A stretch of 64,000 nt of DNA from Candidatus Ryanbacteria bacterium RIFCSPLOWO2_12_FULL_44_26 (GTDB lineage: Bacteria; Patescibacteriota; Minisyncoccia; Ryanbacterales; HO2-45-13): contig MHOA01000013.1 of NCBI GenBank assembly GCA_001821765.1, forward strand, positions 15,456-79,455, in the 5' to 3' direction. Position 1 is the stretch's first letter. Every line of letters begins with the position of its first letter. Both the position numbers and the translations under genes were made by a program. Shown one piece after another: positions 20,072-43,341 of this stretch. The notes below the pieces were generated by a model. That model did not search any database and was not told the origin of the DNA. It saw only the letters and a program-made list of their open reading frames with translations.

Positions 20072-20173
20072 TTATGAATTTCGTTTTTCAAATGAGCGGC
20101 GCATATCCAAGAATGATGTTTACTGGCAATTATCATTCACGGAAATTTCCGATTTCCTATCTCTAATATAATG
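20072..20173 (+). repeat. Copy B of the conserved ~105-nt intergenic element
   Basis: TTATGAATTTCGTTTTTCAAATGAGCGGCGCATATCCAAGAATGATGTTTACTGG...GGAAATTTCCGATTTCCTATCTCTAATATA-ATG. The hairpin is shortened to GGAAAT/ATTTCC. Confidence 0.7.
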
Positions 20174-20869
20174 AAAGTTTCAATAATCATTCCTGTTTAC
20201 AACGAGGCAAAAACAATTCAGCGTATTGTTGATGTTGTTCGTGTCGCTTCATTCGGTTTTGAGGCCCAAAGAGAAATAATTGTCATTGACGATGGATCCG
20301 CTGACGGCACTTATGAGGCGCTGAAAAGCATTAAAGGAATTAAGGTGTTGCATTTTGAACGCAATCAAGGAAAGGGCGCGGCGCTAAAGGCAGGCTTTGG
20401 GCAGGCATCTGGGGATTTTGTTATTATTCAGGATGCGGATTTGGAATATGATCCAGCCGATTACGCTATTTTATTAAAACCCATGTATGAGGGGAAAGCC
20501 GACGTTGTGTTTGGTTCTCGGTTTAGGGGAGAATACCAGCGGGTGCTCTATTTTTGGCATTATTTCGGAAATTTTCTTTTAACGCTTCTTTCCAATATGT
20601 TTACTAATTTAAACCTCTCGGATATGGAAACGGGATATAAAGTGTTTAAGCGGGAGGTTGTCAAATCGTTCACTCCTCATTTAAGGTCAAAGCGTTTTGG
20701 TATAGAACCGGAAATAACAGCGCGTGTGGCACGGGGCGGTTGGCGTATCTATGAAGTGCCAATCAATTATTATGGACGCACATATGAGGAGGGCAAAAAG
20801 ATACGATGGTACGACGGGGTAAAAGCCATTGCAGCAATTTTATATTTTAATCTTTTTGATCGCCGATGA
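20171..20869 (+). CDS. GT2 polyprenyl-phosphate sugar synthase (DPM1-like)
   Basis: MKVSIIIPVYNEAKT...IVIDDGSADGT...IIQDADLEYDP...VFGSRF. Paralog of 16732..17445. Confidence 0.8.
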   Translation: MKVSIIIPVYNEAKTIQRIVDVVRVASFGFEAQREIIVIDDGSADGTYEALKSIKGIKVLHFERNQGKGAALKAGFGQASGDFVIIQDADLEYDPADYAILLKPMYEGKADVVFGSRFRGEYQRVLYFWHYFGNFLLTLLSNMFTNLNLSDMETGYKVFKREVVKSFTPHLRSKRFGIEPEITARVARGGWRIYEVPINYYGRTYEEGKKIRWYDGVKAIAAILYFNLFDRR

Positions 20870-25939: not shown

Positions 25940-26824
25940 ATGGTTATTGTCATTTGCGGAGGAGAAGGGCAACTGGCGCGCGAATTTGCGGCATATTTTA
26001 AAAACTATCACTCTGCTGTTAAGGTGACGTCACTCTCACACGGTGATCTGGACATAACCCAGGAAAAAAGCGTTCTAGAAGTTTTTAAACAGCTCCGCCC
26101 TCATGTTGTTATTAATACCGTTGCGTACCATAAGGTTGATGAATGTGAGAGAAATGTGGCGCGCAGTTTTAACGTTAATGCATTCGGCGGCTATCTGGTT
26201 GCAAAAATGAGCCGTGATATAGGAGCGCGGTCAATGTATTTTAGCACGAACTATGTCTTTGACGGCGCAAAAGCAACTCCGTATGAAGAAACAGATATCC
26301 CTAATCCGCTTAATATTTACGGTCATTCCAAGGCCCTTGCGGAACGGTTGATTCATGTGTGCGATCCTCAGGCGTGGATTGTTCGCACAAATGGTCTTTT
26401 CGGACGTTACTGCGGACCAAAAACAAAAGGCGGGAGTGGAAATTTCGTTGATTTTGTTTTAGGAAACGCAAAAGAAAACGCTGATTTGGAAATGGTGTCT
26501 GACCAAAACATTACCCCGACGTTTACGGCCGATCTCGTTAAGGCGTGTGTTCAGCTGATTTTGGAGAATGAAAAAGGAGGTATATTTCATATCACAAACA
26601 GTGGAGAGACGACATGGTTTGAGATTGCTGAAAAAATTTATGCGTTAGTTGGTTCACATGGCAGGGTAAAACCCATTACGACAGAAGAAAGAAATGCACC
26701 GGCAATGCGCCCTAAAAACGCCGTATTGGCAAATAACAGGCTTAAAGCATTGGGGTTCTCAACACTTCCTGATTGGAAGGTTGCATTAAGAAAGCATCTT
26801 GAGTTGAAAGGGGTCTTGCCTTAA
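25940..26824 (+). CDS. rmlD: dTDP-4-dehydrorhamnose reductase-like (RmlD family)
   Basis: MVIVICGGEGQLAREF..., HVVINTVAYHKVDECE, YGHSKALAE (YxxxK). Length ~290 aa. Confidence 0.7.
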   Translation: MVIVICGGEGQLAREFAAYFKNYHSAVKVTSLSHGDLDITQEKSVLEVFKQLRPHVVINTVAYHKVDECERNVARSFNVNAFGGYLVAKMSRDIGARSMYFSTNYVFDGAKATPYEETDIPNPLNIYGHSKALAERLIHVCDPQAWIVRTNGLFGRYCGPKTKGGSGNFVDFVLGNAKENADLEMVSDQNITPTFTADLVKACVQLILENEKGGIFHITNSGETTWFEIAEKIYALVGSHGRVKPITTEERNAPAMRPKNAVLANNRLKALGFSTLPDWKVALRKHLELKGVLP

Positions 26825-26827
26825 TAC

Positions 26828-27892
26828 TTAAGAAGTCCGGATTTTTTCTACAATCCTTACAATTTGATTTGCAACGTCCACGCAAGTTCCAATTTTGCCG
26901 GAAAAAAGAACCACGCATCTATCGTTAATTTTTTCAACCCATGTCGGTCTGGTATCGTCATGCTCCTTGTAAGGCGGAACAGCACGGACAGTGTACATAG
27001 ATCCGACGTGTTCTGCTCGTTCGATTTCATAGAAGAATTCTTCGGCTGATTCAATGAAACTTTGAAAGTTTGTAATAGGCGGATTCTCAATAATTCCTTT
27101 ATTTAATAGTGGTTGGAACATATGGGGAATTTCTGGAAATTTTCCGATATTTGTGTGGTGAACAGCGTGCGCCACATTGCCCATCACAAACATACCTGTA
27201 GAGCCGAATGGGTCAATACACATAAATGGTCCGTCCAGAATAACTATGCTTTTGCCGTTATAGATTGATGGAAGTTTTACTACCGGTTTTTCACAAAGTT
27301 CGAATTGATAATCATGTTGTCTGTTGGGAAAGTTTTTCAGAAGTGTATTGTTGTTTGCATATAGAGCAATGACTGTAAAATCGTATTTTCTCAAATCTCT
27401 TTCACTGGCAACGCGATTTAGTAAAAGGTTTACCCCATATTCATTCAATTTTTTCTTGCAGAATATGTTAAGCTTTGGAAGGTCAATAAGTTCCTCTTGA
27501 ACTTTTGCTATATATTCGATTTTTTCTTTCTTTACAACGGTTAGTTCATCCTCTTCATACGGAAGGTTGCAAGCATCCCAAATTGTTCTGCATTGTTTTG
27601 CGTTAGTTAATGTGTTTTCTTTTGCAATGCAGTAAAAATGGTCAATTGGTTCGTCGATCAGGGTGTCTTTGTATTCTTTTATGAAACTTTTCTCTCCTTG
27701 ACAAGAAAGAAGAATGGTTTCCACGCTCCTCGGATAATGAAAGCCTTTGTGAAGGCGATATTGATTGATTCCAGATGCTGCCGTGAGGATGTCCGGTTGT
27801 TTTTCATAAAGATCAACACCATGGCCCTTTTGTGCCAACTTCCAAGCGGACGTGATTCCAAATATCCCTCCTCCTACAACCGCTATTTTCAT
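26828..27892 (-). CDS. FAD-dependent oxidoreductase
   Basis: N-terminal MKIAVVGGGIFGITSAWKLAQKGHGVDLYEK is a Rossmann dinucleotide-binding fold. Confidence 0.5.
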   Translation of the reverse strand: MKIAVVGGGIFGITSAWKLAQKGHGVDLYEKQPDILTAASGINQYRLHKGFHYPRSVETILLSCQGEKSFIKEYKDTLIDEPIDHFYCIAKENTLTNAKQCRTIWDACNLPYEEDELTVVKKEKIEYIAKVQEELIDLPKLNIFCKKKLNEYGVNLLLNRVASERDLRKYDFTVIALYANNNTLLKNFPNRQHDYQFELCEKPVVKLPSIYNGKSIVILDGPFMCIDPFGSTGMFVMGNVAHAVHHTNIGKFPEIPHMFQPLLNKGIIENPPITNFQSFIESAEEFFYEIERAEHVGSMYTVRAVPPYKEHDDTRPTWVEKINDRCVVLFSGKIGTCVDVANQIVRIVEKIRTS

Positions 27893-27901
27893 ATTTTTAT
27901 A

Positions 27902-29188
27902 TTATTTTTTAAAAAGCAGAAAGGGCAGGAAATAATTTGCGAATCTCCCGATAATTCTTCCCCCCACCGCTCCCCAGATGCCGTAGGATGGAATAAGCAC
28001 GAGGAGTGCGAGAATCTGTATGAAAGGAACCGCAGTATTGTATGCGTATATCTTTTTCATGTTTCCTTCCGCTTTGAGCGCCGCGTTAAAGACACCAAAC
28101 GGAAAAGGGATAAGTGAAAGAGTAAAAATTTGTGAGAAGAGAACTGATTCCATGTATTTTGGAAATAGGACACGGAACAAAACAGGCGCTGCGAGTATAT
28201 ATATCACAACCAGCACGCCGGTTAGTATTGATGCTTTCAGCGCCTTTCCGGGAAGAGTTTTTTTGAGTTCTTGTGTTGTGTGTCTATCATTCGTTTTCAA
28301 CGAGAGTTTCGGAAATACAACAGTTTGGACAGTGCTTAAAAAAGCCTTCATTTGTTCTGGAATTGCGATTGCAAAAGAATACACAGCCAGCGCGCTTGAG
28401 CCGAGGAGGTTATAGAGAATGATTGCGTCAAGGTAATTTGAAGCAGTCTGTGGTACGTAGAGCGCGCTTAATTTTAGGCCGTATCTGATTGATTCCGGAT
28501 CATCAACGCTTTCTTTTGATATGAGCCGTACCGTTTTTCGGTAGAATATTGCGCTTGGAATTGCATGAGAAAGGAAATAGGTGCTTATAAGAAGTATCAT
28601 GCTTTGAGCATGCGGAAGCTTCCATACAATAATTGCAACCATCGCGCTCATCATAGAAAGGCCATAGATAACGTGCGCCCAGATGTTGTAGTATGTTTTT
28701 TTTCGAAATTTCATTTTACCTTCAAAAAACCCTCTCCAGACGCTCAAGCTTTCATTAAACGGCGCGATGAATGAGGCGATGACGAACGCCGCTCCAAGCA
28801 CCGCGTTTCCTTGCCAAAAAAGATAACTTCCGATGAGGATTCCCGACAGGGTAATTCCAAAAGATGAAAAAAGTATAATCCGCGCACCTCTTATGAACGC
28901 ATAATCGTAGCCGCGGGAAACAGCTCTTCGGATTGCAACACCCATCCCCGGAAGCGCAAAAACACCCAATAAGCCCAAAACGCTCAGAACGTATCGGTAG
29001 TCGCCATATGCGTCTTTAAGCAGGAACCGGGCGTATAGCATTGAAAGCGCCAGAGCAATGATGGTCCCGATCGCTTTTCCTAGTATCAGCCAAAAACTCC
29101 CGCGCGCTACATAGGCGGTGTCTATTTTGAGAAAGCGTTCCAGCGCCTTGAGCGCGCTTTCCATAACGCGCATCCCTCTAGAGATCAT
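27902..29188 (-). CDS. Wzx-like (MOP superfamily) polysaccharide/oligosaccharide flippase
   Basis: About 12 TM helices. The N-terminal region matches polysaccharide biosynthesis protein (PF01943-like) architecture. Confidence 0.65.
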   Translation of the reverse strand: MISRGMRVMESALKALERFLKIDTAYVARGSFWLILGKAIGTIIALALSMLYARFLLKDAYGDYRYVLSVLGLLGVFALPGMGVAIRRAVSRGYDYAFIRGARIILFSSFGITLSGILIGSYLFWQGNAVLGAAFVIASFIAPFNESLSVWRGFFEGKMKFRKKTYYNIWAHVIYGLSMMSAMVAIIVWKLPHAQSMILLISTYFLSHAIPSAIFYRKTVRLISKESVDDPESIRYGLKLSALYVPQTASNYLDAIILYNLLGSSALAVYSFAIAIPEQMKAFLSTVQTVVFPKLSLKTNDRHTTQELKKTLPGKALKASILTGVLVVIYILAAPVLFRVLFPKYMESVLFSQIFTLSLIPFPFGVFNAALKAEGNMKKIYAYNTAVPFIQILALLVLIPSYGIWGAVGGRIIGRFANYFLPFLLFKK

Positions 29189-29298
29189 GGCTCTATGTAT
29201 ATCGGTATACCGTTACAGAAGAGAAAATCTTTGGATTGTGTCATAACGGCAAGTTTAATGTACGGAAATCATCAATGTTCCGTTTCGTAAAACACATT

Positions 29299-29970
29299 TC
29301 AATATTCGACGGTATCCTTGCCGCTCATCAGTTCTACAGACTCAACTCCGCGAGCTTGACGGAGCTCATCAACAAGCCGTGATGCATAAGAAGGATCGGT
29401 GAGCTGAATGCCGAGGGTAAATTCTCTTAAGCCGTCATGGAGCGTTTTAACTGAAATAGTATGTAAGCCCTTAAGCGATGTTTTCCAAGGGCCGGTTTCT
29501 TCGGGTATGAATGGTTCTCGAGCGGCAATAACAAGAATATGTCCCCCGCGGCTTACTGAAGCAAAATCAAATTGGTACAGAATCAGAATAATAACAGAGA
29601 CAAGGAGTGTTCCGATGGTGGCAACCGTATAATTACTGGTCCCGACTGCTACGCCGATTGCCAGAGAAAAGAACACAAAAGCAATGTCGCGCGTCTCTTT
29701 TACGATCGTTCGGAAGCGGATAAGAGCAAAGGCGCCTAAAAGGGCAAAGGCGCCCACAATATTTTCCGCCACAACCATCATAATGAGGCTCGCAATGATT
29801 CCCATCAAAACAATGGTAAAAACAAACGACTGCGAATAGGACAGCGTTCGGTGGGTTTTTCGGTATACCCATGCAATAATAAGTTCCAGGAAAAACACAT
29901 ACAGAATATTCAGCACAACGACAGCCGCATTAATTTCCGTTTCTGCGAGTAAAAGAAAGTTATCAAACAT
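29299..29970 (-). CDS. DUF4956-family membrane protein
   Basis: Four to five TM helices. The conserved core ALLGAFALIRFRTIVKETRDIAFVFFSLAIGVAVGT is DUF4956-like. Confidence 0.55.
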   Translation of the reverse strand: MFDNFLLLAETEINAAVVVLNILYVFFLELIIAWVYRKTHRTLSYSQSFVFTIVLMGIIASLIMMVVAENIVGAFALLGAFALIRFRTIVKETRDIAFVFFSLAIGVAVGTSNYTVATIGTLLVSVIILILYQFDFASVSRGGHILVIAAREPFIPEETGPWKTSLKGLHTISVKTLHDGLREFTLGIQLTDPSYASRLVDELRQARGVESVELMSGKDTVEY

Positions 29971-29985
29971 ACGACATATTATAAC

Positions 29986-30693
29986 TTATCGTGGGATAGG
30001 ATGGAAGCGATATACGGATTCCACCGCCTCTGCGTATTTTGAAAATGTGGTTCGGGAAAGTTGAAATTCATCAAGCAGCCGGCGGAACCAGTAGGGTAGA
30101 GGGTTGGCAAATTTTACTTCCATCACAATAAAGCCCGGATGCACCCGTGTGGTAGCATGCGGCACTCTTAAGTCAGATGTCTTCGACGCTTCTATTTTTG
30201 AGTCAATTGTTATTCTAAGATCACTTCTTCCTTTAGAGATATAAGGACGCCGGATGTAGCGCACCATAACTGATGGTTTCATCCTTTGGGTGAGAAGCGG
30301 CAAAAAGGTCGGATGGGAGGTGACCAACGGCACGCGTGATCCATAAAGCAATGTTTCATAGGTCCGCGCGTCAAGCAGCACCCTTTTTTTAAAAACAACC
30401 ATCTCATATTTTTCCTTTTTCTCAAGCCATATCTCTGGTGTATGTTCGTTGAGGAATGGCGCATAAATGCGCACTCTGATTTTTTTTCTTCTTAGAAGTC
30501 CGCCCGCTTTGTCTAAATAGTCTTCCATTGTCGGCGTGTCAAAATAAAGACTTGTCACGGGATAGGCGTTTTGATGATATGAGACGCTATTCGGATCGGA
30601 CTGCAAGCCGTTTTGAAGAAGCTTATTGCAGATTAACCCCTCCGTTGATTCAGGGAGAATGTATTTAAACTCATAACGGCTAAAATGTTGCAT
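29986..30693 (-). CDS. VTC-domain (polyphosphate polymerase-like, triphosphate tunnel) protein
   Basis: MQHFSRYEFKYILPES...TSLYFDTPTMEDY...LRRKKIRVRIY matches the VTC/CYTH-like domain signature. Confidence 0.6.
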   Translation of the reverse strand: MQHFSRYEFKYILPESTEGLICNKLLQNGLQSDPNSVSYHQNAYPVTSLYFDTPTMEDYLDKAGGLLRRKKIRVRIYAPFLNEHTPEIWLEKKEKYEMVVFKKRVLLDARTYETLLYGSRVPLVTSHPTFLPLLTQRMKPSVMVRYIRRPYISKGRSDLRITIDSKIEASKTSDLRVPHATTRVHPGFIVMEVKFANPLPYWFRRLLDEFQLSRTTFSKYAEAVESVYRFHPIPR

Positions 30694-30870
30694 GTTTATT
30701 TAACGCGTGAATACTTGTCTGCTGTTTTGGGTGTATCAAAGTGAAGGGTTGTCATCGAATAGGTGTTATCTTCGAAAAAGCGGTTTTTTTCGGATTTGGT
30801 TCCATGCCATGTCTTATTAGGACTTTCCGAATTTCTTCCGCAGCCCTTTTAAGACAGAGTGCATTGAAAC

Positions 30871-32190
30871 TCAAAGCGGGTACATTTCGTCTGCATATTT
30901 ATATATAAGAGCATTGTTTTCCTTAAGCATGGATTGAAGTGTGAGAAAGTTGTGTTTATAAATCTCGCGGTCTTCCCGGACTTGTTTTTGGGCTTCAAAC
31001 GATGTTTGTATTTTGGAAGTGTCACTATATATCTCTGGCAGTATTATTTCTGTCATTTCATCGTAAAAAGCAAGGTCATCTTCCAGATTTTTTATATCTA
31101 GAACATAGGATCGTGCCAAATCTTCAAACCGTTCCCTAAACGCTTCACTGGCGATGAGTCTGTTTACGATGCGATGTTCTGTAAGATCAATCGCGCCATT
31201 CATTGCCGTTAAATGCGCGTCAAAAAAGACCGGCTCAAACTTTTCGGACTCCTCGTTGTAGAAGAAATTAAGATTATCATAATTACCCTGATGGAAGTTA
31301 CCGGAGAGTACTGATAGCAATGTCCATCTTAAAAAAACGTCGGTATCAAGAATTGTTCCGATCTCTTTTTCAAATTCTTGCTTCGTGGATTTAGCTGTGA
31401 GGGCAAGGAGTTTCATCAGCTCCGGATATGTCTCACCTGAGCGTTCCGGTTCGTCGCGGTCATACCACTGGCCTGCTGCTTCAGTGGTCAGGCGGTCTTT
31501 AGCGCCCTTGATATTTTTAACGCTAAAAACGCGTCCGTCGAGTTCTTCCCATCCTTCAATGAGAATATACACGCCCATGTCTTTTTTATTTACATATAGT
31601 CTCACCGGCTCTGCCTGCAGGGTTAATACATCGTGCTTATTACCGAGATGATTCCAAAGCATAGCTTTTATCCATCCTTTATCCTCACCGATAAAAAAGC
31701 GAAAAACCCTTCGTCCATCAAGCTGGGCGTCAATGGGGAGTTGCACATGCCATGATTTCTTAAGAGCATTCCAGTGGTTCGGCGAATTTCCTCTGTAGCG
31801 GATTTTGGCGTTCGCAGTTGTATACGTTCCGTGACGAAATTCCGCTTTTACTGTCTTTTTGAATTCTTCATAAAGTCTGTTCTCTTCAGGGTAGTTAGGA
31901 AGATTGTTGATGAGGTTAAGGCGATCGTTTTGAGTCAGCGTGATTTTATAGATTGGAAGAGTTGATTTGCGAAATGAGACGCGAACAAGATACGGGAAAT
32001 CCGTTATCTTTTTCAGTGAACGCCATGTAGGAGAAAAGTGTCGTATCAACGGATTTAAGTTAGAAGAAATGCCATCCAGGCGCGTTACTGTATTGCCATG
32101 CGTTATAATACCGATAAGGAAAAGTGTCATTATTATAAGTCCTGTAAAAAAGAGCCGTTTTCGCATTTTCATTGAGGATAATGCTAGCAT
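30871..32190 (-). CDS. CotH-family atypical protein kinase-like protein
   Basis: LLSVLSGNFHQGNYDNLNFFYNEESEKFEPVFFDAHL resembles the CotH DWD...NNYYLY...WDLD core. N-terminal signal/TM segment. Confidence 0.6.
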   Translation of the reverse strand: MLALSSMKMRKRLFFTGLIIMTLFLIGIITHGNTVTRLDGISSNLNPLIRHFSPTWRSLKKITDFPYLVRVSFRKSTLPIYKITLTQNDRLNLINNLPNYPEENRLYEEFKKTVKAEFRHGTYTTANAKIRYRGNSPNHWNALKKSWHVQLPIDAQLDGRRVFRFFIGEDKGWIKAMLWNHLGNKHDVLTLQAEPVRLYVNKKDMGVYILIEGWEELDGRVFSVKNIKGAKDRLTTEAAGQWYDRDEPERSGETYPELMKLLALTAKSTKQEFEKEIGTILDTDVFLRWTLLSVLSGNFHQGNYDNLNFFYNEESEKFEPVFFDAHLTAMNGAIDLTEHRIVNRLIASEAFRERFEDLARSYVLDIKNLEDDLAFYDEMTEIILPEIYSDTSKIQTSFEAQKQVREDREIYKHNFLTLQSMLKENNALIYKYADEMYPL

Positions 32191-32249
32191 GGATACGTCT
32201 GCATTTCAATATAACGTATGGTAAGTTGAATAAGTATATCAATTTTTCT

Positions 32250-32498
32250 ATGATGGCTTATATGAAGCTTTTTCAATACTTTACAGTTTTGATTATTCTT
32301 ATTGTTTCTTTTGTCTTTTTCTTCCCGAGAAATTCTTATGCATACCTTGATCCCGGAACATTCAGCTATTTCATACAGATGTTGGTTGCGGTGTTGGCTG
32401 GGATAGGTGTTGCGGTGAAAGTCTCTTGGACAAGTATTAAAGGCGTGTTTTTAAAATTATTTTCAAAAAAGAAACAGGATGAAAAAGATAGCGCGTGA
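32250..32498 (+). CDS. Small 2-TM membrane protein (hypothetical)
   Basis: Start chosen at MMAYMKLF. Two hydrophobic helices. The 3' end overlaps the downstream gene start by 20 nt, suggesting coupling. Confidence 0.3.
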   Translation: MMAYMKLFQYFTVLIILIVSFVFFFPRNSYAYLDPGTFSYFIQMLVAVLAGIGVAVKVSWTSIKGVFLKLFSKKKQDEKDSA

Positions 32499-33636
32499 GT
32501 TCGCTGATATATACCGTTTTTTCTGGAAGACCCCCATTGGAGAAAGAAGCGTTGTCTTTTATGCAGAGCATGAAGGCTACTTTGCATATTTTGAAGGACT
32601 CATTCGAGAACTCACCGAGTTGCGCGGATTGACTATTGCCTATATCACTTCAGACGTCAAAGACCCCATCTTCTCAATGGAAGCGGCAAAGAAAGGGAAG
32701 ATTTTTCCTTTTTATATCAGGACGCTTCTCCCTTATTTCATGTTATTTGTTCATTCAAAAGTTTTTGTGATGACCATGACCGATCTTGGACAATTCCATA
32801 TCAAAAGGTCCATAAACCAAGTACATTATGTTTATTTGTTCCATGCCCTTGTAAGTACGCATATGGCGTATAGAGAAAGCGCCTTTGATAGCTATGATAC
32901 AATCTTGTGTGCAGGCCCGCATCAGGTAGCTGAGATTCGTCAAAGGGAAAAGTTGAAGCAATTGCCCCCCAAAAATCTTATGGAGGCGGGATACTATCGC
33001 CTGGAGCGTATTTATAATTCGTATAAGAATTTTAAGCACAAGAGGAGAGATGATAAAAAAGTTATACTTATAGCTCCTTCATGGGGTAAAGACAATGTGC
33101 TTGAGGCCTGCGGCGGATATCTTATTGATAAATTATTAAACGCCGGATATGAAGTGATTGTTCGGCCACATCCGGAAACAATACGTCGTTTCCCGAAATT
33201 GGTTGATTCGTTTGCTGTCAGATTCGGCAATAATGATTTTTTTACACTTGAGAGATCGGTTGCATCAGATGATTCTATTCTACGTGCTGATGTTTTGATA
33301 AGCGACACCTCTGGTATTACTCTTGAATATTCATTTGGCACTGAACGGCCTGTTTTATTTATAGACGTACCACCAAAAGTGAGAAATGAAAATTTTAGAG
33401 AATTGGAAATAAAACCCATAGAACTGGCACTCCGGGATAAAATTGGTATTATTGTTTCTCCCAAAAAACTGGATGATATAGATCAGATGATTGATAATCT
33501 CATTTCAAAAAAAGATGATTATCAAGAAAGCATCAGAGTCTTGCGGGCCCAATATGTCTATGCATTCGGCCAATCTTCAAAAATCAGCTCTAAATACATA
33601 ACTGACCTCATCACACAAAATGTCCAAAAAGCGTGA
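32479..33636 (+). CDS. TagB/TagF-family (CDP-alcohol-dependent) glycerophospho-/phosphonotransferase-like protein
   Basis: VILIAPSWGKDN...VIVRPHP...ADVLISDTSGITLEYSFGTERPVLFID resembles the Glyphos_transf C-terminal core. Confidence 0.45.
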   Translation: MKKIAREFADIYRFFWKTPIGERSVVFYAEHEGYFAYFEGLIRELTELRGLTIAYITSDVKDPIFSMEAAKKGKIFPFYIRTLLPYFMLFVHSKVFVMTMTDLGQFHIKRSINQVHYVYLFHALVSTHMAYRESAFDSYDTILCAGPHQVAEIRQREKLKQLPPKNLMEAGYYRLERIYNSYKNFKHKRRDDKKVILIAPSWGKDNVLEACGGYLIDKLLNAGYEVIVRPHPETIRRFPKLVDSFAVRFGNNDFFTLERSVASDDSILRADVLISDTSGITLEYSFGTERPVLFIDVPPKVRNENFRELEIKPIELALRDKIGIIVSPKKLDDIDQMIDNLISKKDDYQESIRVLRAQYVYAFGQSSKISSKYITDLITQNVQKA

Positions 33637-33768: not shown

Positions 33769-35241
33769 TTAACGTGCATTTTCCTCAAAAGGAAAATCCG
33801 TTATGCTGATTCTCCGGCTTCGTTCCAGGAGTCTTGCATGTATTATTTCCAAAAGTCCCTCCCTGAGAATGCCTTGTTTTAAGGCAAGCACGGTCCAGGC
33901 AGGACATAAAGGATCCTCTCTTTTCTCGCTGTAGTTATGAAGATTTGGATTTTGGGTGAGCAGCCCCGTGTTCGTGTCTACCTTGGAATAAGCTGACCGT
34001 GTGGCACACCCCCCTTGGCATAGGTTGTTTGCGTACAGATCGCAAACCTCAGGTGAGCAGACATAGGTGCCATAGCCCTTTGCGAATTCTTTTCGGTAAG
34101 CGCGCAATTTTTTGCCTTTTACGATGTTCTCCAGAGAGAAATTCTTGTTAAACACGTTTCCAAAAGTGTATCTTTCGGTTGTATCTCTGCCGGGAGATTC
34201 CGAACAAGCTGTTACATCTCCATTAGCTCTTATGTGGAGACCTGATCTATTCCTGTTGCAGGTTTTGTTGTAGGTAAAGGCTGAGCGCGGGGTCCAGGCT
34301 ATGCCAAATTTTTCTTTATCTATTCTTGAGATAAGATCATAAAGGACTTTTACATGTGGAGAGTGTATACCGGCTTCTTGCTCCTTGCTTTCAGCGCCAC
34401 CGCAATAGTGAATAGGAACAATGGAGTGATCAAACCCGTTTTCCATAACCCACATGTGCAGATCAAGCATGCTGTCAAATGTGGCGTGATTAAGCACTGA
34501 ATTTACCACTAATCTTAAGTTGGGGTTTTTGCCGTACCCTGCGGCGATCAGATTCTCATAGCCTCTTTGCATTCTTTGAAATGCACCGGGTTGATTGACT
34601 AGGAAATCCTGGAGTTCTGGTATTAAGGTATCGCCCTTCGTGCATAGCCCAACTTCATAATCTCTAAACCTTTTTGCAACCTCTGGTGTTATCAGCGCAA
34701 CATCATCAAAGGTAAGGAGTTTGGGCTTCTTGCCTTTGCACGCGTAAACATTGATTATCATCTCTACAACCCTGAAAAAATGATCCCTCACCCCCTTTTG
34801 TTTTCCTAGTTCCGGATCCTTGTATAATAGCGGCTCCCCACCCGTAAGAATAAACAGGCTTGTTCCCAGATCTCGAGCTTCTTCGGTTATCGATCTTATC
34901 ATACGGAATGGCAGATATTCACTCTGCCTTGGGCCGGAGTTGGCGAAACACCATTGGCATTCGAAGTTACATCCCCGGGTGAGCATATAATCCAGTGAAG
35001 TAAGCTCAATACCCTCATTGATCATGCTGATAAGCTTGTCTGGTGCAATGCCTCCCATGCCCGGATGTAGATCCACGACAGCTCCTCTTAAAGCGCGAAT
35101 TGACACGATCTCTTTTGTGGAGAGACTGTATACTTTCTCTCCCTTTTTGGGCTCCTTCAGAGGTTCTGTAAAAATCGGCTCTTTCTTAAACAAGTCTGGG
35201 TTCAGTAACGCCTTTAGTGTATCAGTCATAGGAACTTTCAT
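33769..35241 (-). CDS. Radical SAM enzyme with C-terminal SPASM/twitch auxiliary-cluster domain
   Basis: CNFECQWC (CxxxCxxC), LILTGGEPLLY, and a C-terminal cysteine cluster CSPEVCDLYANNLCQGGC plus CNRNRSG...ACSESPG. There is an N-terminal extension of about 110 aa. Confidence 0.75.
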   Translation of the reverse strand: MKVPMTDTLKALLNPDLFKKEPIFTEPLKEPKKGEKVYSLSTKEIVSIRALRGAVVDLHPGMGGIAPDKLISMINEGIELTSLDYMLTRGCNFECQWCFANSGPRQSEYLPFRMIRSITEEARDLGTSLFILTGGEPLLYKDPELGKQKGVRDHFFRVVEMIINVYACKGKKPKLLTFDDVALITPEVAKRFRDYEVGLCTKGDTLIPELQDFLVNQPGAFQRMQRGYENLIAAGYGKNPNLRLVVNSVLNHATFDSMLDLHMWVMENGFDHSIVPIHYCGGAESKEQEAGIHSPHVKVLYDLISRIDKEKFGIAWTPRSAFTYNKTCNRNRSGLHIRANGDVTACSESPGRDTTERYTFGNVFNKNFSLENIVKGKKLRAYRKEFAKGYGTYVCSPEVCDLYANNLCQGGCATRSAYSKVDTNTGLLTQNPNLHNYSEKREDPLCPAWTVLALKQGILREGLLEIIHARLLERSRRISITDFPFEENAR

Positions 35242-35373
35242 TATCTTCCTCCTCTTTATGTTAAATAACAGCCATGTTCAAGGTATCACTCTTTTCAACA
35301 ATTGTAAAAGCAAATAGTGACGGAATAAGCGTTTTATGGTATGTATGGTATGTAATAGTGGCAAGAAATTGAT

Positions 35374-36984
35374 ATGACGAGCCGAGCAACAAAATTTCGT
35401 GAACTTTTAAATTCCGGTAAGCTGGAGTTTCTTTGTGAAGCCCATAACGGTATTTCTGCAAAGATTGTTGAAGAAGCCGGTTTTAAAGGGATTTGGGCAA
35501 GCAGTCTCACCATTTCCGCAGCGATGGGCGTTCGCGACAATAACGAGGCAAGCTGGACACAGATTTTGGAGGTATTGGAATTTATGAATGATGCGACGAC
35601 CATTCCGATTTTGCTTGATGCGGATACGGGATACGGCAATTTTAATAACGTGAGGCGGCTGGTCAAAAAATTAGAACAGCGCAACATCGCCGCTGTATGT
35701 ATAGAGGACAAGCGGTTTCCGAAAACAAACAGTTTATTGGCGGGCGGACGTCAGGAGCTTGCGGATATTGATGAATTCTGCGGGAAAATTAAAGCGGCAA
35801 AAGATACTCAAACCAATCCGGATTTTTCTGTTATAGCTCGCGTTGAGGCTTTTATTGCGGGTTTAGGACTTGATGAGGCTTTAAAGCGTGCAGGCGCCTA
35901 TCATCGGGCAGGCGCAGACGGCATTTTGATTCACAGTAAATCCAAGAAACCTGATGAAGTACTCGCTTTTAAAAAAGAATGGGGAGATCGTTCCCCGGTG
36001 ATTATTGTACCGACCGCATATTATACAACCCCTGTTGAGGTTTTTGAGGAGGCAGGTTTCGGTATCGTCATCTGGGCAAATATGATTTTGCGAGGCGCTG
36101 TGAAGGCCATGAAGGAAGCATCAAGTCATTTAGCGCGAGAAAAATCCCTTCTTACCCTTGAAGATCATATTGTCCCCATTACGGAAATTTTCCGGCTTCA
36201 GGGGTCAGACGAGCTTAAATTTGCAGAGGAGCGTTATCTTCCAGTGGCTGGAGAACATGTCCGGGCTGTTATTCTTGCTGCGTCCCGCGGCAAAGAGTTT
36301 GGTTCCCTAACCGCTCAAAAGCCAAAAGCTCTTTTAGAGGTTGCCGGCAGGCCGATATTGTATAAACAAATAGACACGCTTCGCGAGATTGGCGTGAAAG
36401 ATGTTACGGTAGTGCGCGGGTTTCAAAAAGAAATGATCAACGCTCCACGCATTCGTTATATTGACAATGATGAATACGAAAGCACACAAGAAGTTGTTTC
36501 GTTATGGAAAGGAGTTCAAAACACGTCAGGAAAAACCATCATCGCATACGGCGACATTCTGTACAAAAAATATATACCCACCACCCTTCTTGAAACGGAC
36601 GGCGATTTTGTTATTGCTGTTGATTCGGACTGGAAGTCAAGTTATGAGAAAGGGCGCTATGCAGATTTTGTTTCCTGTTCCGAGCCTTATCAGAAGAAGG
36701 TGTTTGATCAAAAAGTATGGCTGAAGGACATGGGGACAACCCTTGCGCGCGATAGTATTTGCGGAGAGTGGATTGGCCTTCTTTCGGTTTCTGCCGGAGG
36801 CCTTGAAACGCTTCAAAACGTACTTGGAGATTTATCTAAGAAAGATGACTTTGGAAAAATGCGTATGGCCGAACTTTTTCGCGAGCTTATCAAACGAGGA
36901 CATGAAATGAAGGTGTTATATATTCTCGGACACTGGCTTGATGTAGATGACATTATGGATCTTAGCGAGGCCAGTGTGTTCTAG
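35374..36984 (+). CDS. pepM: Phosphoenolpyruvate mutase fused to a C-terminal nucleotidyltransferase (phosphonate cytidylyltransferase-like) domain
   Basis: The N-terminal half carries the PEP mutase motif [12 protein letters not shown] (EDKxxxKxNS) and [10 protein letters not shown]. The C-terminal half has [32 protein letters not shown], an NTP-transferase fold. Confidence 0.85.
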
Positions 36985-36993
36985 TTTGCGTAT

Positions 36994-38127
36994 ATGCTTC
37001 AATGTGACGCGTTTTATAATTTATTAAAAAAACATGGCATAACTTTTTTTACTGGTGTTCCGGATTCGCTTTTAAAAGATTTCTGCGCATACGTGGCGGA
37101 TCATACGGATCCTAAAAATAATATTGTCGCCGCTAATGAAGGAGGGGCAGTTGCTTTGGCTGCAGGACATCATTTGGCAACAGGAAACATTGGTTTGGTG
37201 TATATGCAAAATGCAGGCGTGGGCAATGCTGTAAACCCTCTTGTGTCTCTTGTTGACGGGGAAGTGTACAGTATTCCGGTTCTTTTATTTATTGGATGGA
37301 GGGGAGAGCCGGGCGTAAAGGACGAGCCGCAGCATATAAAGCAAGGCAGGATTACCATCCCTTTATTGGAAGTTCTCGGAATTCCGCACGAAGTGCTCCC
37401 GGATGTTTTTGAGGAAGCAAAACGCGTCTTAAAAAAAGCAGTTGGTTCTATGACCCAAAGAAGCGCTCCCTACGTATTCATTATAAGAAAAGGCATCTTT
37501 GAGCCCTACCTCTTAAAGAAAAAAGAATATTCCTCGTATAAACTTACGCGGGAGCGCGTTATCCAGTCCATTGCCGGGCAATTGGACAACAGAGACATTG
37601 TCATCAGCACAACCGGAAAAACATCCAGGGAACTGTTTGAATATAGAGAAAGGGTTGGGCAAGATCATTCAACAGATTTTTTGACTGTTGGGTCCATGGG
37701 GCATGTCTCTCAAATCGCGCTTGGTCTTGCTTTATCAAAACCAAAAAGAAACGTTTATTGTTTGGATGGTGATGGTTCTCTCATCATGCATATGGGTTCT
37801 TTGGCCATAAATGGCACACGAGCGCCTAAAAACTTTAAGCATATTGTCTTAAATAACGGAGCGCATGACTCTGTCGGGGGACAGCCGACTGCCGGTTTTA
37901 AGATTGACATTGTTTCTATTGCTAAGGCATGTGGTTATAAGGCAGCTTTTGCGGCGGAAGTGGAAAACGAACTTCTAGAAAAGATACATACACTTAAAGA
38001 AACGGCAGGACCTGTATTGTTGGAGGTGAGAATCAATACGGGAAGCCGCAAAGACCTCGGACGACCGACAATAGATCCTAAAGAAAGTAAAAAGGCATTT
38101 ACAAAATTTCTTCAGGATAATGATTAG
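36994..38127 (+). CDS. ppd: Phosphonopyruvate decarboxylase (TPP-dependent)
   Basis: TPP-binding GDGSLIMHMGSL...NNGAHDSVGGQ. About 375 aa. Immediately downstream of pepM. Confidence 0.85.
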   Translation: MLQCDAFYNLLKKHGITFFTGVPDSLLKDFCAYVADHTDPKNNIVAANEGGAVALAAGHHLATGNIGLVYMQNAGVGNAVNPLVSLVDGEVYSIPVLLFIGWRGEPGVKDEPQHIKQGRITIPLLEVLGIPHEVLPDVFEEAKRVLKKAVGSMTQRSAPYVFIIRKGIFEPYLLKKKEYSSYKLTRERVIQSIAGQLDNRDIVISTTGKTSRELFEYRERVGQDHSTDFLTVGSMGHVSQIALGLALSKPKRNVYCLDGDGSLIMHMGSLAINGTRAPKNFKHIVLNNGAHDSVGGQPTAGFKIDIVSIAKACGYKAAFAAEVENELLEKIHTLKETAGPVLLEVRINTGSRKDLGRPTIDPKESKKAFTKFLQDND

Positions 38128-39253
38128 AGAATATTTCGGAGTAGGGAGCATAGAAAATGTAAGATTGATATTAGCTGGTGTTGCTCCAAGGAGCATTTTT
38201 CTTGTTACGGGAAAAAGATCCTATGACGATTGTGGTGCCAGCAAGGCGCTTGGAAATTTATTGGCGGAATATTCAGTGTCTCGGTTTAATGATTTTGATG
38301 TCAATCCAAACATAGATAACATCCGGAAAGGGGTTGATCTGTTTAAAAAAAAGAGATGTGATCTTGTTATCGCTGTCGGTGGTGGGAGTGTTATGGATAC
38401 CGCAAAGGTTGTAAACATTCTTTCAGCGCACGATGAAGACGCGGCGCTGTACGTTAAAAAGGAAAGAAAAATACGGTGCAGCGGAAAACCTCTCGTTGCC
38501 GTTCCGACGACTGCTGGTTCCGGTGGTGAGGCGACGCATTTTGCCGCTCTTTATATTGATAAAAAAAAATATTCTCTTGAAGATGAGCGTCTATTGCCCA
38601 CGTATGCGATTATAGATCCGCAGTTTACTTTTTCTCTCCCAAAAAGAATTACCGCGTCAACTGGCATGGACGCGCTTTCACAGGCAATAGAATCATATTG
38701 GAGTATTTATTCATCCGATGAGTCAAAAGCGTATGCAAGAGAAGCAATTATGCTTGCGCGGGAACATATTGTACATGCCGTCAATCAGCCGACAATAGAA
38801 GCGCGAATTGCGATGAGCAGGGCGGCGCATGCGGCGGGAAAGGCGATTAATACTACCAGGACAACGGCATGTCATGCCGTTTCTTATCCTATAACGGCGT
38901 ATTTCGGCGTTCCGCACGGTCATGCTGTTGGTCTTACGCTTTCGCGCATGTTTGCGTACAATAGTACTCCAAGCGAGGCAGATATTTTAGATATAAGGGG
39001 AGTGGCATATGTGAAAGGTGTTATGCGGGAACTCGCTGTGTTGTTGGGAGCTCAAGACACAGAAAGCGCCAAGAAAGCAATAGATTCCATAATGAGAAAG
39101 ATTGGACTTGAAATGCATTTGCGCGAGTTAGGAATCAGCGGCAATGATATTGAAATAATCATAAAAAACGGTTTTGACCCTGAAAGAGTAAAAAACAACC
39201 CACGGCTTGTAACCGAACAGGCCCTTAGAAAAATATTAAACGATATTCGTTAG
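38120..39253 (+). CDS. Iron-containing (group III) alcohol dehydrogenase, probable phosphonoacetaldehyde reductase
   Basis: GGGSVMDTAKVV motif plus His-rich Fe-binding region. Its position after ppd mirrors FomC/PhpC. Confidence 0.65.
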   Translation: MIREYFGVGSIENVRLILAGVAPRSIFLVTGKRSYDDCGASKALGNLLAEYSVSRFNDFDVNPNIDNIRKGVDLFKKKRCDLVIAVGGGSVMDTAKVVNILSAHDEDAALYVKKERKIRCSGKPLVAVPTTAGSGGEATHFAALYIDKKKYSLEDERLLPTYAIIDPQFTFSLPKRITASTGMDALSQAIESYWSIYSSDESKAYAREAIMLAREHIVHAVNQPTIEARIAMSRAAHAAGKAINTTRTTACHAVSYPITAYFGVPHGHAVGLTLSRMFAYNSTPSEADILDIRGVAYVKGVMRELAVLLGAQDTESAKKAIDSIMRKIGLEMHLRELGISGNDIEIIIKNGFDPERVKNNPRLVTEQALRKILNDIR

Positions 39254-39264
39254 TCCGCGTTTTA

Positions 39265-40026
39265 GTGAATATGAAAGCCATTATTATAGCAGCGGGATTG
39301 GGGAGCCGGCTCGCCCCGCTGACGGAGCATAAGCCAAAGTGCCTGTTGGATGTGGGCGGAAAAAGCATTCTTCAACGTCAACTTGATACTCTTCGTTCAG
39401 CTGATATACACAATATATCTCTTATTAAAGGATATAAAAAAGAACAGATACACTTTCCGGATCTTAAGTATTATGTAAATGATAATTACAGGAACAATAA
39501 CATACTTTATTCTCTGATGAGCGCGGAGGATGAGATGGATTCGGAATTTATTGCACTTTATGCAGACATAATCTTTACCAGCGAGGTCGTCGAGGAGTTG
39601 AAACGGTGTACGGCAGACATAGCCATTGTTGCCGATATTGCTGATCGTAAGTATTATGATGGGTGGGTCGATCATCCCACAGAAGAGGTGGAAAACATCA
39701 TCTTTGATGATGATCACAATGTTATTGCCATAGGCAAGCATATTACCGCACCCGCCGAGTTCATCGGTATGTTGAAATGTACAAGGAGAGGCGCTAAAGT
39801 TTTTAAGGATTATTTTCATAGAGCGCAAAAAGAATTTTCCGGCAAACCTTTTATGCGCTCAAGCGTATTTGAGAAAGCCTATCTTACCGATTTTATCCAA
39901 TATCTTACGGACAACGGCGTAAAAGTTAAGTGCGTTCTTATTAAACAGGGATGGTATGAAATAGACACGATTCAAGATTTAGAAATGGTCAATAGCATAT
40001 TTAAGAAAGCGCGCAGCCATGTCTGA
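39265..40026 (+). CDS. Nucleotidyltransferase (LicC/phosphocholine-cytidylyltransferase-like)
   Basis: MKAIIIAAGLGSRLAPLTEHKPKCLL N-terminal NTP-transferase motif. Confidence 0.6.
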   Translation: MNMKAIIIAAGLGSRLAPLTEHKPKCLLDVGGKSILQRQLDTLRSADIHNISLIKGYKKEQIHFPDLKYYVNDNYRNNNILYSLMSAEDEMDSEFIALYADIIFTSEVVEELKRCTADIAIVADIADRKYYDGWVDHPTEEVENIIFDDDHNVIAIGKHITAPAEFIGMLKCTRRGAKVFKDYFHRAQKEFSGKPFMRSSVFEKAYLTDFIQYLTDNGVKVKCVLIKQGWYEIDTIQDLEMVNSIFKKARSHV

Positions 40027-42414: not shown

Positions 42415-43341
42415 ATGCGCACGCTAAAACAACCGAAAGTCAGCATTCTCTTGCCCTCATATAATAGAGCTTACTTGTTACCTTTCACGATAGAGAACAT
42501 TCTTGAACAAACGTGGAAGGATTGGGAGCTCATTATTGTTGATGACGGGTCGCTTGATAATACTGATGAGGTAATAAAAAATTTCGATGATCGAAGGATA
42601 ACATATATAAAACACCAAGTAAATGCAGGTGAGGCTGCTGCAAGAAACACAGCTCTTGCTGCGGCGAGAGGAGAATATATCGCAAACCAAGATTCAGATG
42701 ACGAATGGTTCCCCGAGAAGCTGGAGGAGGAGGTGTATTTGCTTGATCGATCACCGGCGAGAGTTGGTGCTGTGTATTCTTCGTTTCATAAAACCTTATT
42801 TGACGGAAGCGAAGAAATTGTTCCTTCAGCAATTCACCACCAAAAAGAAGGAAACCTTGTAAACACTTTTTTACGCAGCGACTTTTATATCACTGGACAA
42901 GCTCTCCTAATTAAAAAAGAGTGCTATAAGAACGTTGGTGGATATGATGAGAAATTGCGCGTGCTTAATGATGCTGAGTTTCTTATAAGGTTAGCAAGTC
43001 AATATGAATTTGTTCATAATCCTCACGTTCGTGTTCGTATAAAACGTTTTGAAGACAGTATTTCGAGAAACTTTAAGATGAGATTGGTTTCCAGAGAGTA
43101 TATTTTGCACAAACACGAAGATCTTTTTAAAAAATTCCCCGACTCATTTGCCCGTTACTCATATCGCATAGGGCACACGCATGCACTTTTGGGGAATACA
43201 GACAAAGCGCGCATGTATCTCCGCAAAGCGTTTGTTTTTAGTCCTCTCCATATAAAATATATCGCGGCATTTTTGCTTTCCCTTACCGCTTCATCATGGC
43301 TGTACCGGACGCTCGGTCGTCTTAAAACCAAATGGATGTAA
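42415..43341 (+). CDS. Glycosyltransferase family 2
   Basis: VSILLPSYNRAYLL...LIIVDDGSLDNT...DSDDEW (DxD). Confidence 0.8.
   Translation: MRTLKQPKVSILLPSYNRAYLLPFTIENILEQTWKDWELIIVDDGSLDNTDEVIKNFDDRRITYIKHQVNAGEAAARNTALAAARGEYIANQDSDDEWFPEKLEEEVYLLDRSPARVGAVYSSFHKTLFDGSEEIVPSAIHHQKEGNLVNTFLRSDFYITGQALLIKKECYKNVGGYDEKLRVLNDAEFLIRLASQYEFVHNPHVRVRIKRFEDSISRNFKMRLVSREYILHKHEDLFKKFPDSFARYSYRIGHTHALLGNTDKARMYLRKAFVFSPLHIKYIAAFLLSLTASSWLYRTLGRLKTKWM

Follow-up and report, generated by a model that had tools for sequence, protein, structure and literature searches.

A CotH-VTC-DUF4956 gene trio in the glycan locus of a Candidatus Ryanbacteria genome: a possible extracytoplasmic phosphate-chemistry module

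Introduction

What do a polyphosphate-polymerase-like protein of the VTC family, a DUF4956 membrane protein and a kinase-fold protein of the CotH family accomplish together when their genes lie side by side in a bacterial glycan locus? The question is raised by three consecutive minus-strand open reading frames (ORFs) at 29299-32190 of a 64,000-nucleotide stretch of DNA, here called the window, from contig MHOA01000013.1 of Candidatus Ryanbacteria bacterium RIFCSPLOWO2_12_FULL_44_26, a tiny groundwater member of the Candidate Phyla Radiation (CPR). By exact sequence the window was also assigned to contig MHNJ01000005.1 (assembly GCA_001819715.1), whose protein is likewise attributed to a Candidatus Ryanbacteria bacterium. 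In the ORF listing of the window the trio reads:

29299-29970, minus strand, DUF4956 gene, 223 aa
29986-30693, minus strand, VTC gene, 235 aa
30871-32190, minus strand, CotH gene, 439 aa (433 aa in the public gene call, which starts it at 32172)

A preliminary description of this DNA had named the three families, placed their genes between a Wzx flippase and teichoic-like and phosphonate genes, stated that the three domains recur together in bacterial genomes and regarded the function of the module as not established. The trio is real and that reading was correct. All three proteins score above the Pfam gathering thresholds, which serve here as bit-score cut-offs: DUF4956 (PF16316) with 51.7 bits against 30.6 (E=1e-13), VTC (PF09359) with 111.2 against 23 (E=7.5e-32; residues 6-228 covering positions 2-235 of the 235-position model) and CotH (PF08757) with 65.4 against 23.8 (E=8e-18). 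The Pfam and NCBIfam domains of the flanking genes agree with the position described, co-conservation in related genomes holds, and the literature we searched contained no biochemical function for the trio. The term 'CotH kinase' needs qualification: family and fold stand, but the catalytic aspartate is replaced by histidine. Our own reading, which we hold to have slightly better than even chances, is that the trio forms an extracytoplasmic phosphate-chemistry module for secreted glycans.

The three genes are conserved as a unit

A profile of 25 VTC homologues was compared with one genome per GTDB species. Of the 584 relatives confirmed in this way, we retained the best 80 loci (referred to below by their L numbers). 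Their ORFs were called and then searched iteratively with the three window proteins; Pfam confirmed 64 of the 66 CotH matches and 74 of the 75 DUF4956 matches. A locus counted as informative if VTC had 3.5 kb or more of flanking sequence on each side, which was so for 42. DUF4956 is present in all 42 and directly adjacent to VTC in 40. CotH is adjacent and on the same strand in 32 of the 42, and lies on the opposite strand in two more (L028 and L050). The gene orders were VTC-DUF4956-CotH (16 loci), CotH-VTC-DUF4956 as in the window (11) and DUF4956-VTC-CotH (3). Identity to close relatives reaches 73% for DUF4956, 62% for VTC and 58% for CotH.

The pairwise-identity matrices of the three proteins correlate at r=0.89-0.92 over 49 loci (Mantel p=0.001), a value to which shared species phylogeny contributes; the correlation indicates that the three genes are inherited and diverge as a unit. 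Chance adjacency was considered and rejected, because the genes stay linked through three different orders in many phyla and their products co-vary.

Bacterial carriers belong to the Patescibacteria, Bacillota, Chloroflexota, Bacteroidota, Ignavibacteriota, Planctomycetota and Fermentibacterota, together with metagenome-assembled genomes labelled Proteobacteria. An archaeal carrier is the closed genome of Candidatus Lokiarchaeum ossiferum (CP104013.1), in which VTC, a 950-aa CotH retaining the catalytic aspartate and DUF4956 stand side by side (L047:9878-14382). The Lokiarchaeum trio may be relevant to how the VTC polyphosphate polymerase of eukaryotes arose.

Loci without an adjacent CotH gene are L010, L039, L040, L043, L052, L069, L079 and L080. 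They include Bacillaceae (Jeotgalibacillus, Gracilibacillus, Lentibacillus), and three of the neighbour proteins in such loci are sigma-70 family factors, possibly of the extracytoplasmic-function type.

A soluble protein with the catalytic set of Vtc4

The VTC family is large, with 14,271 clusters at 50% identity at E<=1e-3 and 8,241 at E<=1e-10. A PDB search with the single window sequence returned nothing useful and a profile was needed; the VTC profile matched yeast Vtc4 (3G3Q) with E=2.4e-15. In yeast Vtc4, K200, R264, R266, K281, Y359, R361, S457 and K458 are triphosphate ligands whose mutants lower polyphosphate, E426 is a ligand of Mn2+, and K458 alone among them is altered in the inactive Vtc2 and Vtc3, which have Ile or Leu there (bioRxiv 10.1101/2023.01.27.525886). 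All nine catalytic residues are identical in the window protein, namely K10, R73, R75, K93, Y146, R148, E192, S218 and K219, corresponding in order to Vtc4 K200, R264, R266, K281, Y359, R361, E426, S457 and K458. The nine are also kept across the 81 locus homologues, the exceptions being truncated ORFs and one Ser-to-Gly replacement. E8, part of the ancestral ExExK motif, is kept in the bacterial VTC proteins and is Thr in Vtc4.

Pfam detects only the VTC domain in the window protein, with no SPX domain, and hydropathy analysis finds no membrane segment in it (maximum KD19 hydropathy 0.68), so the protein is predicted to be soluble and cytoplasmic. To judge from these residues, it is a triphosphate-tunnel enzyme of the Vtc4 type and a putative polyphosphate polymerase.

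The 177-nt spacer between CotH and VTC holds a further trace of the family:

30700-30850, minus strand, frameshifted relic of a VTC N-terminus

Its translations AAEEIRKVLIRHGMEPNP and EDNTYSMTTLHFDTPKTADKYS resemble VTC residues ~18-62. The match to the HMM has E=3.4e-5 in a search of three sequences only, and we estimate from conserved columns that the relic shares ~55% nucleotide identity with the 5' region of VTC. It has no function in the module and probably descends from an old partial duplication or from what was once a second VTC gene, comparable to the duplicated VTC genes of Clostridium perfringens NELoc-2.

A five-helix membrane partner resembling MgtC

Hydropathy, loop charges and the AlphaFold2 (AF2) model (pLDDT 78) give DUF4956 five membrane helices, an acidic N-terminus outside and basic cytoplasmic loops. 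At the C-terminus (approximately residues 144-216), the AF2 model has a cytoplasmic ACT-like beta-alpha-beta domain, which Foldseek relates to the C-domain of MgtC (2LQJ) and to ACT domains. Matches to MgtC itself fall below threshold, with 20 bits against 31.4 for Pfam PF02308 and 26.4 against 214 for the NCBIfam MgtC/SapB model NF007431; by these scores the protein is classed as MgtC-like and not as a member of the MgtC family proper. The most strongly conserved stretch, G73-A-F-x-L-L-G...I84-R-F-R87...K91...D95, lies at the cytoplasmic end of the third transmembrane helix. It is invariant among CPR homologues, and R-F-R, K and D are at least 90% conserved over the 75 locus homologues.

Kinship with a Vtc1-like channel was considered and is not supported. 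The sequence profile against the PDB gave marginal membrane-protein noise only, a single-sequence PDB search gave nothing useful, and Foldseek with the membrane part returned no match and no Vtc1-type chain.

An outward-facing CotH protein with a variant active site

Hydropathy shows a single hydrophobic segment in CotH, at residues 11-36, and its position after KMRKR places the rest of the protein, including the kinase fold, outside the cell. The AF2 model (pLDDT 89.6) matches Bacillus cereus CotH 5JDA in Foldseek with E=1.7e-17 and a TM-score of 0.78; the next-best matches are PI3K, PI4K II, HipT, CtkA and inositol-phosphate kinases.

CotH of Bacillus subtilis is a protein kinase and its D228Q variant is inactive (PMC7821199). 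We took the active-site roles from the same study and from alignment to B. cereus CotH (5JD9), using 68 rows made up of the window protein, 5JD9 and 66 locus ORFs. Conserved positions are the RG (R133, G134) and KKS (K144, K145) elements, D170, N201, E212, N306 and D324, the last being the metal-binding aspartate (B. subtilis D251), kept in 67 of the 68 sequences. The catalytic aspartate (B. cereus D224, B. subtilis D228) is His300 in the window protein, and histidine also occupies this position in 27 of the 67 other aligned sequences. These His-type proteins all belong to loci in which CotH lies before VTC or immediately behind it; they come mostly from loci with CotH first, and three are from Chloroflexota and Cytophagia loci of the order DUF4956-VTC-CotH. 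The aspartate is retained in the Bacillota clade and a few others, often with Ser at the Asn position. Among the His-type sequences, the histidine is constant across several phyla while its flanking positions vary, and Asn306 is present in all. Because the histidine is constant across phyla and the metal ligands are intact, the His-type site looks like a working variant and not like decay.

The window CotH is a minimal short form with no accessory domain. A C-terminal parallel beta-helix is common in its close homologues, and accessory domains over the loci comprise Beta_helix (21), NosD (15), LTD (11), CHB_HEX_C_1 (10), Fn3_assoc (10), pectate-lyase-like domains (6) and type IX secretion (T9SS) sorting tails (3), extracellular modules, largely of the carbohydrate-associated kind. 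The loci L004, L005, L013, L019, L020, L021 and L026 have CotH paralogues in tandem, two or three of them, typically a long form with a C-terminal beta-helix and a short form of ~450 aa; one copy in L013 is seemingly degenerate, having lost several active-site positions.

Exopolysaccharide genes surround the trio, and one synthase is fused to VTC

Glycan genes adjoin the trio in both main clades. In the CotH-first clade, the 138 neighbour proteins are mostly glycosyltransferases of families GT1 and GT2, sugar-nucleotide epimerases and dehydratases, methyltransferases, Wzx-type flippases, nucleotidyltransferases and UDP-sugar dehydrogenases. The loci with CotH after VTC (109 neighbours) are nearly all from Bacillota and all their CotH proteins are of the Asp type; there a conserved set comes after the trio, in which a hypothetical protein is joined by a HEAT-repeat protein and by either a processive GT2 synthase or a BcsA-like GT2 plus PilZ; EAL, GGDEF or GH5 genes are frequent additions. 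The GT2 synthases of the Bacillota loci are chitin-synthase-like or PgaC-like. Taken with the Gram-positive pel operons of the literature, the Wzx-type and processive-GT2 contexts make the trio a portable cassette found on at least three kinds of exopolysaccharide pathway.

On two metagenome contigs (L082:1265-8560 and L083:607-5916), a 718-aa protein, P0396, combines a processive GT2 polysaccharide synthase and an intact VTC domain in one chain. The gene order is DUF2334, which we take to be deacetylase-like, then GT2::VTC, DUF4956 and an 822-aa CotH with a lamin-tail-like N-terminus. Through this fusion, VTC activity is physically tied to the synthesis of glycan on the inner membrane face. 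Neither VTC::DUF4956 nor VTC::CotH fusions were found among the 80 loci, 120 DUF4956 homologues and the top 150 VTC representatives; a long VTC ORF in L050 is an antisense artefact over the CotH gene on the opposite strand.

The locus in the window

The trio lies within a glycan locus at 12948-47729, ~35 kb of a small CPR genome. Features of the locus include:

26828-27892, minus strand, FAD-dependent oxidoreductase (Pfam DAO, NAD_binding_8), 9 nt after the Wzx-like gene
27902-29188, minus strand, Wzx-like flippase (Pfam Polysacc_synt, Polysacc_synt_3), 110 nt downstream of DUF4956
32479-33636, plus strand, TagB/F-like glycerophosphotransferase (Pfam Glyphos_transf)
35374-36984, plus strand, phosphoenolpyruvate mutase fused to a nucleotidyltransferase (Pfam/NCBIfam)
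36994-38127, plus strand, phosphonopyruvate decarboxylase (Pfam/NCBIfam)
43332-44885, LtaS/EptA-like sulfatase-family protein

Homologues of the Wzx-like flippase are encoded in L002-L005, which are the loci of the closest relatives, and in L010; the flippase is likely an operon partner of the trio and the source of the exported glycan. The FAD-dependent oxidoreductase had no homologue in the 80 related loci and is not conserved with the trio. Within the trio, where all genes share a strand, 177 nt separate CotH from VTC and 15 nt separate VTC from DUF4956. A promoter and terminator scan of 26500-33000 found no more sites than in shuffled sequence, so the limits of the operon are set by spacing alone. 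Scans of the window with Rfam and for tRNA genes were empty.

Further contents of the locus are four PMT_2 proteins (ArnT/PMT-like), several GT1 and GT2 proteins, SDR sugar-nucleotide enzymes, methyltransferases including a TylF-type O-methyltransferase, and small GT2 proteins resembling polyprenol-phosphate-sugar synthases. For one small GT2 (20171-20869), 19 of the 80 trio loci encode a homologue, and a 577-aa ORF on the plus strand at 15015-16748 has no Pfam match at E<=1e-4. The phosphonate branch (33769-40026) also contains an Fe-alcohol dehydrogenase, a second nucleotidyltransferase and a divergent radical-SAM/SPASM protein, for which no NCBIfam equivalog was found at cut-off. The Fe-alcohol dehydrogenase suggests a head group of the hydroxyethylphosphonate rather than the aminoethylphosphonate type. 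As general companions of the trio, phosphonate genes were considered and dismissed: they are clear only in L031, which makes them a local feature, and weaker matches elsewhere may stem from the nucleotidyltransferase half of the fused mutase.

Comparison with known systems

As a gene set, the trio is already known (bioRxiv 10.1101/768473; PMC12345266; PMC2879425). It was reported as an accessory set (cotH-PPP-DUF4956-DUF4832) of Gram-positive pel operons, and the authors of that work proposed regulation through protein phosphorylation (bioRxiv 10.1101/768473). In the pel cluster of Streptococcus intermedius, the three genes (SIR_1592, SIR_1593, SIR_1594) were deleted one by one, and deletion of DUF4956 or CotH altered Pel levels and halved aggregation (PMC12345266). 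The Pel module resembles the window in that the same three families stand side by side and adjoin exopolysaccharide genes, with CotH predicted to be secreted, DUF4956 combining an MgtC-like membrane domain with ACT, and VTC annotated as a polyphosphate polymerase. The window differs in its CPR host and in its Wzx-type glycan locus with phosphonate genes, where no Pel protein (of a pelDEADAFG set) or DUF4832 hydrolase is found among the annotated genes at ~12.9-47.7 kb. Its gene order is CotH-VTC-DUF4956 as against VTC-DUF4956-CotH in Bacillota, and its CotH is a minimal 439-aa protein with no FN3 or other accessory domain and with His for the catalytic Asp. The 2025 S. intermedius paper found no three-gene synteny outside Pel loci (PMC12345266), a claim that the present loci contradict. 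The non-Pel setting, the His variant, the reach into CPR bacteria and Asgard archaea and the synthase fusion are new.

Among Gram-positive relatives, NELoc-2 of C. perfringens (CP4_0460-0468; PMC2879425) contains VTC-domain genes with a ~225-aa membrane protein encoded after each of them; CotH comes next, and behind it a HEAT-repeat protein and a GT2 resembling chitin synthase. This arrangement is present in 9-11 Bacillota loci of our analysis. NELoc-2 is, however, a synthase-dependent exopolysaccharide operon of a Gram-positive pathogen with an Asp-type CotH, whereas the window has a Wzx-type locus and a His-type CotH.

With the yeast VTC complex (Vtc4/Vtc3/Vtc1; 3G3Q, 7YTJ, 8I6V), the window shares the tunnel-domain family, an identical catalytic set and the obligatory partnership of a cytoplasmic tunnel enzyme with membrane-embedded proteins. 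The yeast tunnel domain makes polyphosphate in mechanical coupling with a membrane channel that translocates the product out of the cytoplasm (PMC9911596). The window tunnel domain, by contrast, is separate and soluble, with no SPX and no fused 3-helix DUF202; its partner, an MgtC-like protein of five helices that has an ACT-like domain, is unrelated to the yeast ones, and the destination of a product would be the cell exterior, not the vacuole. The window trio thus stands outside the architecture of the eukaryotic VTC complex as well as outside pel operons.

The window CotH and the Bacillus protein (5JD9/5JDA) agree in Pfam family and fold, and both have the RG and KKS elements, the Asn of the catalytic loop and the Asp that binds metal (B. 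subtilis D251). The Bacillus enzyme, though, acts in the mother-cell cytoplasm on the coat proteins CotB and CotG, whereas the window protein has a signal anchor, a non-sporulating CPR host and His at the position of B. subtilis D228. To our knowledge, no spore formation is known in the CPR. Also comparable are POMK/SgK196 and Fam20B, kinase-fold enzymes that modify sugars on the non-cytoplasmic side of a membrane, as we propose for the window CotH. The similarity is at the level of the general kinase fold only; the ATP of those enzymes is brought into the Golgi or ER lumen by import, and they have no associated polyphosphate system. POMK is reported to be active despite a non-canonical arrangement of its active site (PMC5142810).

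Discussion

Our analysis leads us to propose the following sequence of events. At the inner membrane face, the soluble VTC protein would build polyphosphate from the gamma-phosphate of ATP, an activity suggested by its complete catalytic signature. DUF4956 would dock VTC through its cytoplasmic ACT-like domain and the basic RFR..K..R motif and conduct the nascent chain outward, taking the role that the unrelated membrane domains of Vtc1/3/4 have in yeast; strict adjacency, co-variation, topology, the basic motif at the inner face and the yeast precedent point in this direction. Outside, the anchored CotH would work in a compartment without ATP, with exported polyphosphate as the phosphoryl donor or as the transferred group. 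Its substrate would be the glycan brought to the surface by the surrounding Wzx-type locus, and although the topology of this step can be read from the sequence, its chemistry is our conjecture. The outcome would be a phosphate-bearing, more anionic surface polymer. We regard the whole chain, from polyphosphate made inside through export via DUF4956 to its use by CotH on an exported glycan, as possible while expecting that at least part of it will prove otherwise.

Several strands of evidence favour this scheme. The VTC protein holds the nine Vtc4 residues including K458 and, having no membrane segment itself, sits beside an obligate polytopic neighbour with which it co-varies, an arrangement that recalls the coupling of synthesis and channel in yeast. 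The CotH protein retains conserved phosphate and metal residues and lies outside the cell in a family rich in carbohydrate-type fusions; the neighbours are glycan genes, a GT2::VTC fusion exists, and deletion of DUF4956 or CotH has effects in S. intermedius. The preliminary description had suggested that the trio may phosphorylate or polyphosphorylate an extracytoplasmic glycan or protein, and this idea, although unproven, fits the outward CotH, the complete Vtc4-like enzyme, the glycan contexts, the carbohydrate-type CotH fusions and the glycan-synthase::VTC fusion.

Other observations weigh against the scheme. The literature searched reports neither polyphosphate synthesis by a bacterial VTC-domain protein nor, more broadly, any activity of such a protein or of a secreted bacterial CotH. 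In the PDB profile and Foldseek searches, DUF4956 showed no resemblance in sequence or fold to the Vtc1-type channel. MgtC, its nearest relative, is known as a regulator rather than a channel. We know of no protein-kinase-fold enzyme that uses polyphosphate as donor, and with His in place of the catalytic Asp in the window clade, the His-type CotH may be no kinase at all. In 8 of the 42 informative loci the VTC-DUF4956 pair has no adjacent CotH; the pair can thus work alone and in some lineages evidently has a CotH-independent role. The chief objection comes from genetics: in S. intermedius, deletion of VTC gives no aggregation phenotype, while deletion of DUF4956 gives more Pel and less aggregation and deletion of CotH less Pel and less aggregation (PMC12345266). 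A silent VTC deletion together with opposite changes in Pel is not what a simple linear pathway predicts.

Alternatively, polyphosphate may itself be the product. VTC and DUF4956 would then secrete an anionic matrix polymer that cross-links or neutralizes a cationic, partly deacetylated exopolysaccharide (Pel, or one resembling poly-N-acetylglucosamine or chitosan), and CotH would tether, trim or regulate the polyphosphate instead of phosphorylating the glycan. We think this unlikely, although several points favour it: Pel, the polymer of the published association, is handled by the deacetylase domain PelA_DA; the presumably deacetylase-like DUF2334 gene adjoins GT2::VTC in the fusion locus; Bacillota loci encode chitin-synthase-like or PgaC-like synthases; the pair appears self-sufficient where CotH is missing; and loss of DUF4956 lowers aggregation while raising Pel, as if a cross-linker had gone. 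Against it, deletion of VTC left aggregation unchanged, and the locus in the window is of the Wzx type for heteroglycans and carries decoration genes of phosphonate and glycerophosphate type, so that its polymer is more likely to be anionic or zwitterionic than cationic. The tight co-evolution of the pair with a kinase fold that keeps its metal and phosphate ligands would also be left unexplained.

The same deletions, with their differing phenotypes, would fit separable functions, in which CotH is an ordinary ATP-dependent Ser/Thr protein kinase acting on surface proteins or on proteins of the exopolysaccharide machinery, and VTC-DUF4956 is a separate, MgtC-like phosphate-homeostasis pair that shares only its regulation. 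That B. subtilis CotH is a protein kinase (PMC7821199), that the pel authors proposed regulation by protein phosphorylation, and that Salmonella MgtC affects ATP synthase and PhoR, as cited in PMC12345266, all favour this arrangement. We nevertheless judge it distinctly unlikely. The CotH domain lies outside the membrane of an organism with no known extracellular ATP source, the window clade has His where D228Q kills B. subtilis CotH, the accessory domains are mostly of carbohydrate type and not protein-interaction modules, and shared regulation hardly explains strong co-variation and a linkage that persists through three gene orders, many phyla and one archaeon. It is also conceivable that VTC is no polymerase at all but a tunnel-fold triphosphatase or signalling enzyme paired with an MgtC-like regulator, and that the His-type CotH is a non-catalytic, glycan-binding pseudokinase or an adhesin. 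Bacterial tunnel-fold (CYTH) enzymes are, after all, mostly hydrolases or cyclases, and bacterial VTC proteins retain E8 of the ExExK motif where Vtc4 has Thr. The loss of the catalytic Asp to His fits a non-catalytic role, and CotH proteins of Mucorales act as surface ligands (PMC9973265). The full-length match is, however, to the VTC family and not to CYTH, with a complete Vtc4 set including K458, and strict conservation of the histidine in 27 sequences of several phyla, with Asn306 in all and Asp324 in 67 of 68, argues for a live active site; we therefore consider this combination very improbable.

Returning to the export of polyphosphate for use on glycans, we can also sketch a wider and more speculative picture, which we deem rather unlikely as a whole: a third, VTC-type and export-built polyphosphate route in bacteria and archaea, in which a Vtc4-like polymerase and an MgtC-like conduit would supply an outward kinase-fold enzyme with polyphosphate as its source of energy and phosphate. 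That enzyme would phosphorylate or polyphosphorylate glycans of the surface, in the His-type clade perhaps by way of a phospho-His intermediate. As Lokiarchaeum has the trio intact, we add that such a route might be a prokaryotic forerunner of the eukaryotic VTC. An export route, if true, would account for phosphorylation where ATP is absent.

PPK1 and PPK2 are usually regarded as the only makers of bacterial polyphosphate (bioRxiv 10.1101/2023.01.27.525886), and VTC is commonly treated as a eukaryotic invention. Here, a VTC enzyme with a complete catalytic set belongs to a very large prokaryotic family and is tied to a membrane partner and in most loci also to a secreted kinase fold, in every case next to exopolysaccharide genes. 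The small gene set and the known residues leave the question open to direct testing. If the trio does export polyphosphate or phosphorylate glycans outside the cell, it would define a new polyphosphate pathway and a new class of glycan modification, relevant to biofilm matrices such as streptococcal Pel and those of C. perfringens NELoc-2 as well as to the poorly understood envelopes of CPR bacteria, and would show how kinases can operate without ATP.

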